25,387 nucleotides of DNA, from NCBI GenBank assembly GCA_043816185.1, contig JBDRIG010000082.1, positions 1 through 25,387 on the forward strand, read 5' to 3'. Within the stretch, counting starts at the first letter, position 1. Each line of letters starts with the position of its first letter. Position numbers and translations under genes: made by a program. The notes under the pieces are model-generated. The model was not told the origin of the DNA and did no database searches. It saw only the letters and a list, made by a program, of their open reading frames with translations. Positions 1-25,387 of the stretch are shown piece by piece. The stretch comes from Elusimicrobiota bacterium. GTDB taxonomy: Bacteria > Elusimicrobiota > UBA8919.

Positions 1-127
1 ACCGGGGTTAAAGTCCGGTGTATATATTATACACCACTTTTGATCGTTTGAAAAGATCACAAAAGGTCTGCGCTTTTATGCGTTACTTTATGACCTCCCC
101 GGAAGGAAGCTTGCTTTTCCATTATAC
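1..127 (-). mobile_element. Non-coding end of a multi-copy insertion element (IS110/IS1111-like candidate), truncated by the window edge
   Basis: 1-134 is the reverse complement of 25251-25384 with one mismatch (position 5). It abuts the REP motif CATTGCG at 128-134. No transposase is visible, so the family is inferred. Confidence 0.7.
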
Positions 128-141
128 CATTGCGAGCGAAG
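128..141 (+). repeat. Truncated GTCATTGCG-type REP copy (insertion target)
   Basis: CATTGCGAGCGAAG matches the intact copy GTCATTGCGATCGAAGCGAAGCAATCTC at 9927 but lacks the leading GT. Confidence 0.65.
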
Positions 142-2042: not shown

Positions 2043-3353
2043 ATGGCCGAACAAACTATTGAATTTTTACCAATACTTGAACAAATCGAGAGAGAAAAAG
2101 GTATAAAAAAAGCTGATTTATTAAAAACGATTGAAATTGCACTTATGTCTGCATTTAGAAAACATGAGGGCAATAAAAATCTTAATTTGGAAGTACATAT
2201 CGATGAAAGCACTGGAAAAATCAAAGCGTATCAGGTAAAAAAAATTGTCGAAAAAATAGTAGATGCAGCAACTGAAATTTCACTTGAAGATGCGCTCATA
2301 TTAAAGCCAAAAGTAAGTCTTGATATGAATTTGAAATTTGAGATTGTTATAAACGATTTTGGTCGTATTGCAGCACAAACAGCAAAACAAGTTATAATAC
2401 AAAAAATAAGAGAAATTGAAAAAGATAATCTTTTTATCGAGCATACGTCTAAAGTTGGTCAGATATTAAATGGAATGGTTTATAAATTTATTGGCAAAAA
2501 TATAATACTCGATATGGGAAAAAGCGAATCAATATTACCTGTATACGAACAGTGCCCGAGGGAAAAATTTAATATCGGTGATCGATTGAAAGTGTACGTT
2601 CTTAAAGTTGAAAAAACTTCTCGCGGCCCGCAAATGGTAGTTTCCCGTCTTCATCCTGAGTTGATAAAAAACCTTTTTCGCTTGGAAGTTCCAGAAATTT
2701 ACGACAATACTGTTGAGATAAAAAATATTGTAAGAGAACCTTTTTCGAGAATAAAAGTTGCCGTACTATCGCACAATATAAAAGTTGATGCAATTGGTTC
2801 TTGTGTTGGAGTGAAAGGTATAAGAATAAAGTCAATTATCCAAGAATTACAGGGCGCAAGAATTGATATGGTTACTTATTCGGACAATCCCTCTCAATAT
2901 ATTACAAGTGCTTTAAGCCCTGCGAAAGTATTAACAATAGATGTTAAAGAAGCGGAGAAAAAAGCGTATATAACTGTTGCTGCGGATCAATTGTCTTTGG
3001 CAATCGGAAGAGATGGACAAAATGTTCGTCTTGCTGTAAAATTGACTGGCTGGAATATTGACATAAAACCTGAATTGAAAAAAACATCGAAGGAAACAAC
3101 TGAAACACTAACTGAAACACTAACGGAAACACCAACGGAAACGTCAATGGCAGAAACACCACAAGAACAAAAAGCAGATGATCTTATAGAACTTAAAGGT
3201 ATCGGAGAAAAAACGAAAGAGATATTGATTAAGGCGGGATTTAAAACAATAAATTCGCTTGCAACCGCTACTGTGGAACAATTAACTGCCTTGCCTAAAA
3301 TAGGTGAAAAAACGGCACAAAAAATTATAGATTCTGCGAAAAATACGAAATAG
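2043..3353 (+). CDS. nusA: Transcription termination/antitermination factor NusA with C-terminal helix-hairpin-helix extension
   Basis: FGRIAAQTAKQVIIQKIRE, S1/KH motifs and QLSLAIGRDGQNVRLA; C-terminal LKGIGEKT and LPKIGEKTA HhH motifs. Confidence 0.98.
   Translation: MAEQTIEFLPILEQIEREKGIKKADLLKTIEIALMSAFRKHEGNKNLNLEVHIDESTGKIKAYQVKKIVEKIVDAATEISLEDALILKPKVSLDMNLKFEIVINDFGRIAAQTAKQVIIQKIREIEKDNLFIEHTSKVGQILNGMVYKFIGKNIILDMGKSESILPVYEQCPREKFNIGDRLKVYVLKVEKTSRGPQMVVSRLHPELIKNLFRLEVPEIYDNTVEIKNIVREPFSRIKVAVLSHNIKVDAIGSCVGVKGIRIKSIIQELQGARIDMVTYSDNPSQYITSALSPAKVLTIDVKEAEKKAYITVAADQLSLAIGRDGQNVRLAVKLTGWNIDIKPELKKTSKETTETLTETLTETPTETSMAETPQEQKADDLIELKGIGEKTKEILIKAGFKTINSLATATVEQLTALPKIGEKTAQKIIDSAKNTK
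3099..3146 (+). repeat. 12-bp tandem repeat x4 in the nusA linker (TETL-TETL-TETP-TETS)
   Basis: ACTGAAACACTA x2, ACGGAAACACCA, ACGGAAACGTCA. Confidence 0.85.
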
Positions 3354-3514
3354 ATATAGAAGTAGGAAACACTCCCATTTAACAATTTGTTTCTCGACGA
3401 GGCAACAAGGTGTCGTTGCAACAAGCCGTCATCCATGGAAAAGCATGTCAAGTAGAAAATAGCATCCACTGTCAAAAATCAGTATCTTTTGACACGCTTC
3501 CTTCCAGCTAAAGT

Positions 3515-3651
3515 GGCTGTCCGACAACCTATTCCGCTTTACCGACGACACAGCATCAGTAAAAAAATGATGTGTTGTTTGTTGCTATTGGTTGCCAAAT
3601 ACTGCTATATTTTACAAAAAAAATGACTGTTTTACGATTTGTCGGACAGCC
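3515..3651. mobile_element. MITE-like miniature element with 13-bp terminal inverted repeats
   Basis: GGCTGTCCGACAA (3515-3527) and TTGTCGGACAGCC (3639-3651) are perfect inverted repeats; non-coding; ends resemble IS1182/IS5-type termini. Confidence 0.65.
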
Positions 3652-9926: not shown

Positions 9927-10009
9927 GTCATTGCGATCGAAGCGAAGCAATCTCGCTTTTGTTTTCAACATCGAGATTGCCACGAGTCCTTCAGACTCTC
10001 GCAATGGCA
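9927..10009. repeat. Intact inverted REP doublet (REPIN-like)
   Basis: GTCATTGCGATCGAAGCGAAGCAATCTCG ... CGAGATTGCCACGAGTCCTTCAGACTCTCGCAATGGC between dnaK and dnaJ. Confidence 0.85.
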
Positions 10010-25230: not shown

Positions 25231-25257
25231 CGAGATTGCTTCGCTACGCCCGCAATG
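25231..25257 (-). repeat. REP copy interrupted by the element (insertion target)
   Basis: CGAGATTGCTTCGCTACGCCCGCAATG; the expected terminal AC is replaced by the element end. Confidence 0.8.
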
Positions 25258-25387
25258 GTATAATGGAAAAGCAAGCTTCCTTCCGGGGAGGTCATAAAGT
25301 AACGCATAAAAGCGCAGACCTTTTGTGATCTTTTCAAACGATCAAAAGTGGTGTATAATATATACACCGGACTTTAACCTCGGTAAG
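25258..25387 (+). mobile_element. Second copy of the same non-coding element end, truncated by the window edge
   Basis: Inverted near-identical copy of 1-127; the junction reads TG-G-TATAAT. Confidence 0.7.

Follow-up and report, generated by a model that had tools for sequence, protein, structure and literature searches.

A divergent, high-copy IS1111-type insertion sequence in an Elusimicrobiota genome and the predicted occlusion of the Shine-Dalgarno sequence by its recombinase mRNA leader

The last bases of a contig from an uncultured Elusimicrobiota lineage begin with CGCAATGGTATAATGGAAAAGCAAGCTTCCTTCCGGGG..., run through three hairpins and break off at ...AACCTCGGTAAG. This raises the question of what kind of element ends here, and what role its structured left end may have. 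The window analysed, 25,387 nucleotides in length, is the whole of contig C82 of genome G000, an assembly of 1,444,528 bases in 112 contigs that is 94.28% complete. A sequence-only reading had described an extended -10 element, three hairpins and a long-range stem in this stretch, all of which are found in the sequence (Table 1). It had regarded the stretch as an element end whose RNA is either a leader repressing translation or part of a guide RNA. The last 130 bases are the left end (LE) of a high-copy insertion sequence of the IS110 family with an IS1111-type layout. Considered as a whole, positions 25258-25387 probably combine an IS1111-type left end, inserted into a REP-like CGCAATGAC sequence at its TG, with the -10 half of a split promoter and a recombinase mRNA leader which pairs with its own Shine-Dalgarno sequence (SD) and lowers translation, the guide RNA being encoded 3' of the gene.

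The left-end stretch matches 38 places in the genome. About 137 nt of this sequence, typically in lengths of 107-141 nt, form 26 contig ends, including both ends of the window contig. The repeat at these ends, together with the defined junctions described below, confirms the proposed element end. The two copies within the window form an inverted repeat (1-141 against 25244-25384) with 98% complementarity, and the sole difference between them inside the element is T versus C at position 25380. Another family of 32 contig ends opens with ATGGAAAAGCA and then diverges. It was considered as a second, related insertion sequence and rejected, being the right end (RE) of the same element. The copy number is about 26-32 in the 1.44 Mb genome. 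The 12 largest contig-end repeat families comprise 131 of 224 contig ends, and the element explains where this contig and much of the assembly end. At least ten further repeat families also end contigs, such as ATGATACCGTTGAAAAA... (12 and 9 ends), CTTGTCAACTCATTTAATAATCTAACCC... (9), TGTTAGCTAACGATACGTTG... (8) and a GC-rich family (7, 6 and 5). The insertion-sequence load of this 1.44 Mb genome is heavy.

Table 1. Positions of the features in the window and in the full-length copy of contig L050
Feature	Position	Strand	Basis
Second, inverted left-end copy	1..129 (element 1-127, core TG 128-129)	-	inverted repeat I1
Solo right-end copy, terminal ~90 nt, subterminal repeat through GGAAGGAAGC, no transposase gene	3428..3519	-	
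Left half of insertion site, REP-like GAGATTGCTTCG...CGCAATG, ending in left target CGCAA and core TG	25231..25257	+	
Core dinucleotide TG, common to target and element, also TG of the extended -10	25256..25257	+	
Extended -10 TGGTATAAT	25256-25264	+	
Left end of IS110-family element, most of the 134-nt transposase mRNA leader	25258..25387, cut by contig end	+	repeat at contig ends; full element in L050
-10 hexamer TATAAT, half of predicted split promoter (-35 TTGACA at the element's right end)	25259..25264	+	
Subterminal inverted repeat ATGGAAAAGCA, partner TGCTTTTCCAT at the right end	25263..25273	+	
Anti-SD arm AGCTTCCTTCCGGGG, 5' strand of closing stem	25274..25288	+	MFE and duplex folds
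CCTTCCGGGG, within the 5' arm, pairing with CCTCGG-T-AAG	25279-25288 vs 25378-25387	+	
Hairpin P2, AGGTC..CGC-ATAAAA-GCG..GACCT, inner CGC/GCG stem	25289..25321	+	
Hairpin P3, TGATC-TTTTCAAAC-GATCA	25326..25344	+	
Hairpin P4, AAAGT-GGTGTATA-ATA-TATACACC-GG-ACTTT	25345..25375	+	
3' strand of closing stem, CCTCGG-T-AAG; SD AAGGAGG and ATG past the contig end	25378..25387	+	C14, L050, run contigs
L050 left junction	2984-2986		
L050 leader (134 nt)	ends 3119		
L050 recombinase ORF, 333 aa	3120-4121		
L050 3' non-coding DNA	334 nt after ORF		
L050 right terminus, ...CTTGACATGCTTTTCCATAGA, then TGAC at contig end			

The insertion sequence measures ~1.46 kb, and a whole copy is present in contig L050 of a related organism (L050:2986-4452). 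An exact-pattern scan for the element matched 7 metagenome contigs and 4 contigs of the MAG Elusimicrobia bacterium RIFOXYD2_FULL_34_15. The ORF of L050 matches PF01548 (N-terminal DEDD, RuvC-like; 49.9 bits, cut-off 29) and PF02371 (C-terminal Transposase_20; 37.1 bits, cut-off 21.3). A profile of this ORF and four homologues matched the IS621 transposase 8wt6 at an E-value of 1.7e-14, with the serine of its ...ESG... motif aligned to S252. This serine is invariant in the five homologous recombinases, as are D8, E54/E55, D90 and D93. The score against NCBIfam NF033542 (IS110 family RNA-guided transposase) is 126.6 bits and thus below the cut-off of 140, which makes the recombinase a divergent IS110 member. 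Seven records were found in a plasmid collection, the best matches being 23-30% identical to the recombinase. Residues 120-300 of the ORF also gave a sub-threshold match of 59.4 bits to NCBIfam NF052498, named 'TIGR-Tas system RNA-guided endonuclease' (cut-off 100).

A search of the home genome G000 with PF01548 gave 0 matches, because the interiors of the element copies are not assembled. The element is spanned by contigs of four sequencing runs, ~92-93% identical to L050, which carry the letters of the copy in C14 at L050 positions 3108, 3119, 3123 and 3126. The version of this genome is therefore also a complete element, and its recombinase gene can be deduced from the 92-93% similar relative and the run contigs. 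Two of the four runs are RNA libraries; as assembled contigs, which hold neither transcript starts nor strand and may stem from DNA, their coverage of the leader is no proof of transcription. A search for relatives in the family of G379 was positive in 4 of 80 genomes, and none of 43 pattern matches was confirmed when viral contigs were searched for full-length relatives. Homologous elements at other insertion sites are found in four genomes of the phylum, with protein identities of 74% (L056), 57% (L057), 53% (L058) and 34% (L059).

The layout of the element is that of the IS1111 group, for which the published descriptions give a short LE, a long RE, subterminal repeats of 7-17 bp and a bridge/seek RNA in the RE. 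Here, the LE of 134 nt contrasts with an RE of 334 nt (L050), and an 11-bp subterminal inverted repeat, ATGGAAAAGCA / TGCTTTTCCAT, is separated from the left terminus by 5 nt and from the right one by 3 nt. The element shares with ISEc11, ISPa11 and ISKpn4 of this group the DEDD recombinase with a PF02371 C-terminal domain, the subterminal inverted repeats, site-specific insertion into a repeat, and a long non-coding region 3' of the gene with short matches to both target strands in the same order. It differs from them in its divergent recombinase (23-30% identity to the best plasmid matches) and its host, an uncultured Elusimicrobiota lineage. The clade is of IS1111 type by layout, and RNA guidance is predicted for it. 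The element is thus a divergent, high-copy IS1111-type member of the already known IS110 family, and it adds a clade from an uncultured lineage to the RNA-guided IS110/IS1111 recombinases.

The boundaries were defined from the copies in the genome. CGCAATG precedes 25 of the 28 left-end anchors, CACAATG one, and GGTCATCT, a rearranged form, the other two. Among 43 right-end anchors, 36 are followed by ATAGATGA, and the next base is C in 30 of these, so that CCATAGA-TG-AC is read at 30/36 right junctions of the TCATCTAT form. The junctions are CGCAA-TG-GTATAAT on the left and CCATAGA-TG-AC on the right, and the empty site is CGCAA-TG-AC. The empty site CGCAATGAC terminates REP-like GAGATTGCTTCG... 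repeats and is found 50 times where 4.9 occurrences would be expected; in some cases it is followed by CCAAAAGTAGAGT, as are 10 right junctions. Since the CGCAA|TG|AC model fits both the junctions and the empty sites, the element extends from GTATAATGG to CCATAGA with a TG core and starts at window position 25258. Insertion is sequence-specific, occurring at a short core (TG in the target CGCAA|TG|AC) without long target duplication. The core of the homologue L059 is CG. A first boundary model, CGCAATGGTATA-AT-AGATGA, was discarded: it yielded no empty site at up to 3 mismatches, and its 29 matches were all left junctions or unrelated.

The REP-like repeat is the preferred target of the element. 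Repeats of 27-28 nt like it occur elsewhere in the genome; in the window it is present at 25231-25257 and 9929-9955, and many G000 contigs carry it in the form GAGATTGCTTCG...(variable)...CGCAATGAC or the inverse GTCATTGCGA...CGAAGCAATCTC. At least one other repeat family inserts beside the REP-like repeat (ends of C46, C57 and C79).

Parts of the element are also found on their own. Among the 43 right-end anchors of the genome, 11 are internal to contigs. Besides the solo copy in the window, solo right ends of ~90 nt with an internal hairpin and no recombinase are present in G000 contigs C36, C94, C39, C64, C10 and C48, arranged in tandem in C10 and C48. Recombinase-less derivatives occur in G000 at C89:27733-28226 and C2:23292-23383. 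The left end of each is truncated behind ...CAAAAGTGG and passes directly into AGTT(A/G)(T/C)GACACAGTCT. In the C89 derivative, this is followed by the complete 3' non-coding region, which contains an internal duplication of 35 nt, and by the right end; the derivative may represent a non-autonomous element that still bears the guide region. Two further loci, L033 (G009:C235) and L034 (G004:C2), read ...AATGGTATAATG(A/G)AAAA(G/A)CA... and then pass into unrelated sequence with a common CTACAAAAG motif. These are probably left ends of another related element family with the same terminal motif.

The leader itself can be followed beyond the end of the contig. It had been predicted that the next bases would be GAGG, followed by a start codon. 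The copy in C14 is 15 nt longer and reads ...CCCCGGTAAGGAGGCTCTATGGTAA, so the SD and the start codon lie exactly where they were expected, with GAGG and then ATG. The full-length copy in L050 reads ...CCCCGGAAAGGAGGCTCAATG, followed by the 333-aa ORF, and the contigs of four sequencing runs show the same continuation. With these bases, the closing stem comprises 15 bp, AGCUUCCUUCCGGGG / CCCCGG-U-AAGGAGGCU, and spans the whole SD. Folding, proposed earlier as a check, gave a minimum free energy (MFE) of -48.6 kcal/mol for the leader with the 15 nt from C14, compared with -29.5 +/- 3.5 kcal/mol for 300 dinucleotide shuffles (z = -5.45), and 0 of the 300 shuffles reached the observed value. At gathering thresholds, Rfam matched only a tRNA over the window; Rfam matches on the full element, with E-values of 2.2-5.7, were taken as chance.

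The same closing stem, formed between the 5' arm and the SD, is found in the MFE structures of 6/6 leaders (G000, L050, L056, L057, L058 and L059), the arm beginning 8-12 nt past the subterminal repeat. The duplex energy of arm and SD is -25 to -40 kcal/mol in 6/6, a value reached by 0-5 of 500 arm shuffles. The stem tolerates sequence change. The single difference between the two window copies had been read as a G-C to G-U change that preserves pairing, and the genome supports this: at position 25380, the copies reaching that base have C in 12 and T in 5 cases, and the partner is G in 28/28. In L050 the same pair is mismatched (A x C), and in L056, L057 and L058 it is A-U. The outer stem pair changes from A-U in G000 to G-C in L057, and L059 forms the stem from unrelated arms, GACGGUCUCC / GGAGACCGUC. 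The stem is thus kept by compensatory changes in homologues of as little as 34% protein identity. The covariation anticipated across homologous ends was seen in part: compensatory changes are evident in the duplex folds (6/6 homologues), but the covariation term of RNAalifold is small, at just -0.67. RNAalifold recovered part of the stem from the raw MAFFT alignment, which misplaces L059 and L058 at the 3' arm; per-sequence duplex folds were therefore relied on. The inner hairpins are conserved to different degrees. P2 is kept in the homologues, with changes on both sides at one pair (RNAalifold column 32/56: CG 5, UA 1), and P3 in its window form is absent from L057, L058 and L059.

These comparisons bear on another explanation, in which a repeat at the end of the assembly happens to fold in this way without any function. 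The region is a repeat at a contig end, but its sequence runs on into a gene, its z-score against shuffles is -5.45, and the same architecture with different sequence is present in 6/6 homologues of other genomes. A chance fold is contradicted by the comparison of the homologues and has next to no probability.

The leader is instead predicted to sequester its ribosome binding site, as the sequence-only reading had suggested, by a 15-bp stem over the whole SD whose compensatory changes extend to 34% protein identity. The calculated probability that the SD is unpaired is 0.01 in each of three transcript models, namely a start after the -10, read-in from the host flank, and a transcript crossing the modelled circle junction. 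For the host genes of the window (n = 19), the median is 0.53, and 1/19 has a value of 0.05 or below. In the proposed mechanism, the first 15-20 nt of the leader, just past the likely transcription start, would pair with the SD ~100 nt downstream. This pairing would close the multi-hairpin domain and result in low translation initiation. According to these models, transposase translation would be held low by the leader stem. The leader is probably an ordinary, well-conserved control device of a mobile element.

Twelve distant IS110-family loci of the phylum were examined, and two of them, which lack the motif used to set the start codon, were dropped. In 7/10, the SD is paired by MFE to a 5' arm just past a TAATATGAAAGC-like motif, with a probability of being unpaired of 0.05-0.36; in two others (L068 and L069) a free SD lies behind a large structured domain. 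In this phylum, many IS110-family elements share this predicted occlusion of the SD by the very 5' end of the leader. It may be a general brake in the IS110 family, where it has so far been studied in ISPpu9 alone.

Stems that occlude the SD and limit transposase translation are known from the fold-back inhibition of IS10 and the 5'-UTR stem of IS200. The inhibitory upstream strand of IS10 is known from read-through transcripts alone. The leader described here resembles both in its SD-occluding stem. It is unlike IS10 in that its arm lies downstream of the predicted transcription start, so every transcript should carry it.

This would be different if the stem blocked only foreign read-through or junction transcripts, while the working mRNA started without the anti-SD arm at an internal promoter in P4, as in IS10. 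A candidate for such a promoter is TTTTCA-17-TATAAT (10/12) at 25331-25359, downstream of the arm, and TATAAT also occurs in P4 of L050 and L056. However, the promoter scan gave 2 promoter-like sites where 1.5 are expected in shuffles, and the site is missing in L057, L058 and L059, whose leaders nevertheless keep the closing stem. In addition, the much stronger split promoter (12/12) would place the start just upstream of the arm. An internal start in P4 is considered unlikely for these reasons.

The left-end DNA carries the right-donor site, the 11-bp subterminal inverted repeat and the -10 half TGGTATAAT of a split promoter, which would be complete solely in the excised circle. The recombination core doubles as the TG of the extended -10. 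The earlier suggestion of a -10 at the junction is consistent with the modelled joint of right end, core and left end, which contains TTGACA-17-TATAAT with an upstream TG, 12/12 in both G000 and L050. The modelled junctions of the homologues score 11/12 (L056), 9/12 (L057) and 8/12 (L059). Among the integrated copies (n = 26), the closest approach to a -35 agrees at 1-3 of 6 positions. No joint of right end to left end is present in the contigs of four sequencing runs, which as contigs drop rare forms, and the activity of the circle promoter accordingly remains a deduction from the model.

For IS621, a sigma-70-type promoter is described whose two halves lie in the right and the left end and come together in the circle. 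The element resembles IS621 and IS492 in its split sigma-70-type junction promoter, modelled here in silico. The junction promoter of IS621 is used for a bridge RNA in the left end, whereas the left end of the present element is predicted to be an mRNA leader, with the guide 3' of the gene.

The closest precedent for the leader is the 5'-UTR of ISPpu9, an IS110-family element of Pseudomonas putida KT2440 that is inserted in REP sequences. Its tnp mRNA is reported to have a 244-nt 5'-UTR that folds over the ribosome binding site, and translation increases when mutations weaken this fold. Opening of the 5'-UTR is aided by an antisense sRNA, Asr9, and orphan copies of the downstream module are found in the genome. 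Both elements thus insert into REP sequences and have a long 5'-UTR folding over the ribosome binding site, in the present case by predicted fold, and the orphan ssr9 modules of ISPpu9 resemble the 11 internal solo right-end units described above. There are also differences. The leader has 134 nt compared with a UTR of 244 nt, and Asr9 was shown experimentally, whereas the antisense RNA of the present element is represented by a promoter-like motif alone. Finally, ISPpu9 circles are reported not to form a hybrid promoter, unlike the modelled junction with its 12/12 matches.

The antisense motif, TTGACG-18-TA(T/A)A(A/C/G)T, occupies the minus strand of L050:3127-3156 and is directed back over the SD. 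An RNA similar to RNA-OUT or Asr9 could arise from it, or the motif could simply reflect codon conservation. An antisense RNA might be the main control if it started in the first recombinase codons, ended at the minus-strand P4 and paired with the SD region, either blocking it, as RNA-OUT does in IS10, or unfolding it, as Asr9 does in ISPpu9. In L050, the motif has 11/12 matches (TTGACG-18-TATAAT) in codons 3-12, and sites with at least 10/12 matches lie at the same place in L056, L057 and L058. Read on the minus strand, P4 resembles a terminator both in the window (25368-25350, 8 pairs, tail ACTTTTGATC) and in L050, and the 5'-UTR of ISPpu9 has a documented antisense sRNA. On the other hand, the motif lies over the conserved YIGMDAHSS codons and may owe its presence to coding constraint, and it is absent in L059 (8/12). 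Inspection of the antisense strand of the L057 sequence did not reveal a hairpin with a U-run that would resemble a terminator, and for the copies of this genome the promoter region is known from the run contigs alone. Control mainly by such an RNA appears rather unlikely, and pairing of the SD within the leader itself is preferred.

A further layer of regulation is conceivable. Each right end bears a block, GGAAGGAAGC, which is the exact complement of the anti-SD arm of the leader. In L059, where the arm is GGUCUCC, the block is GGGAGACC and has changed together with the arm. As the block complements the arm and changes with it, a right-end RNA could titrate the arm and free the SD, so that the leader would act as a switch. 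Either the 3' portion of the recombinase/guide transcript or a circle-junction transcript could serve as the titrating RNA. In that case, recombinase production would be tied either to the guide RNA being present or to the element being excised. This switch is regarded as improbable. The block was tried as an anti-anti-SD sequence and rejected: in equilibrium folding, even of the junction-spanning transcript, the SD stays paired (probability unpaired 0.01) and the block pairs locally.

The remaining proposal was that the structured left end is part of a guide RNA. In each element, CCA-N7-GGTT is present in the 3' non-coding region, and its N7 corresponds to the element's own left flank. The cognate matches between N7 and the left flank are 6, 6, 7, 7, 5 and 5 of 7, and non-cognate combinations between five distinct lineages reach at most 4. 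Since G000 and L050 share one left flank, the guides covary in five lineages rather than six. A second segment lies ~30 nt upstream; its reverse complement corresponds to the right flank, with cognate matches of 3, 6, 6 and 5 of 7 compared with at most 3. In an unanchored scan, the 3' non-coding region contained target matches of 7-9 nt (P 0.01-0.04) at homologous positions, which change with the flanks. The same scan of the leader gave longest matches of 4-6 nt (P 0.14-1.0) in 4/4 elements. The guide (bridge/seek) RNA of the element is thus predicted to be encoded downstream of the recombinase gene. The order of the segments, in which the top-strand match precedes the bottom-strand match in the 5' to 3' direction, agrees with that published for IS1111-type seekRNAs. 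With the boundaries and the target CGCAA|TG|AC, the candidate guide segments are defined well enough for testing.

A leader that is itself a bridge or guide RNA, or a part of one, as in IS621-type left ends, is very unlikely in view of these results. The left end does have features of such an RNA, being a structured, promoter-proximal, non-coding stretch of ~130 nt, and the left-end bridge RNA of IS621 is expressed from the junction promoter. The large structured domain upstream of a free SD in 2/10 distant loci also points in this direction. However, target matches in the leader stay at chance level, and these elements carry the segments that covary with their flanks in the 3' non-coding region, from which it follows that the leader is not a bridge or guide RNA. 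The IS1111-type layout, in which the RE exceeds the LE in length and the subterminal repeat has 11 bp, also argues against this assignment, as does the lack of an Rfam match. This part of the earlier proposal was therefore abandoned. The two exceptional loci, L068 (G244) and L069 (G076), possess a structured domain of ~150 nt with a closing stem of 12-15 bp just upstream of the free SD, and may represent a left-end bridge-RNA arrangement, unlike the element described here.
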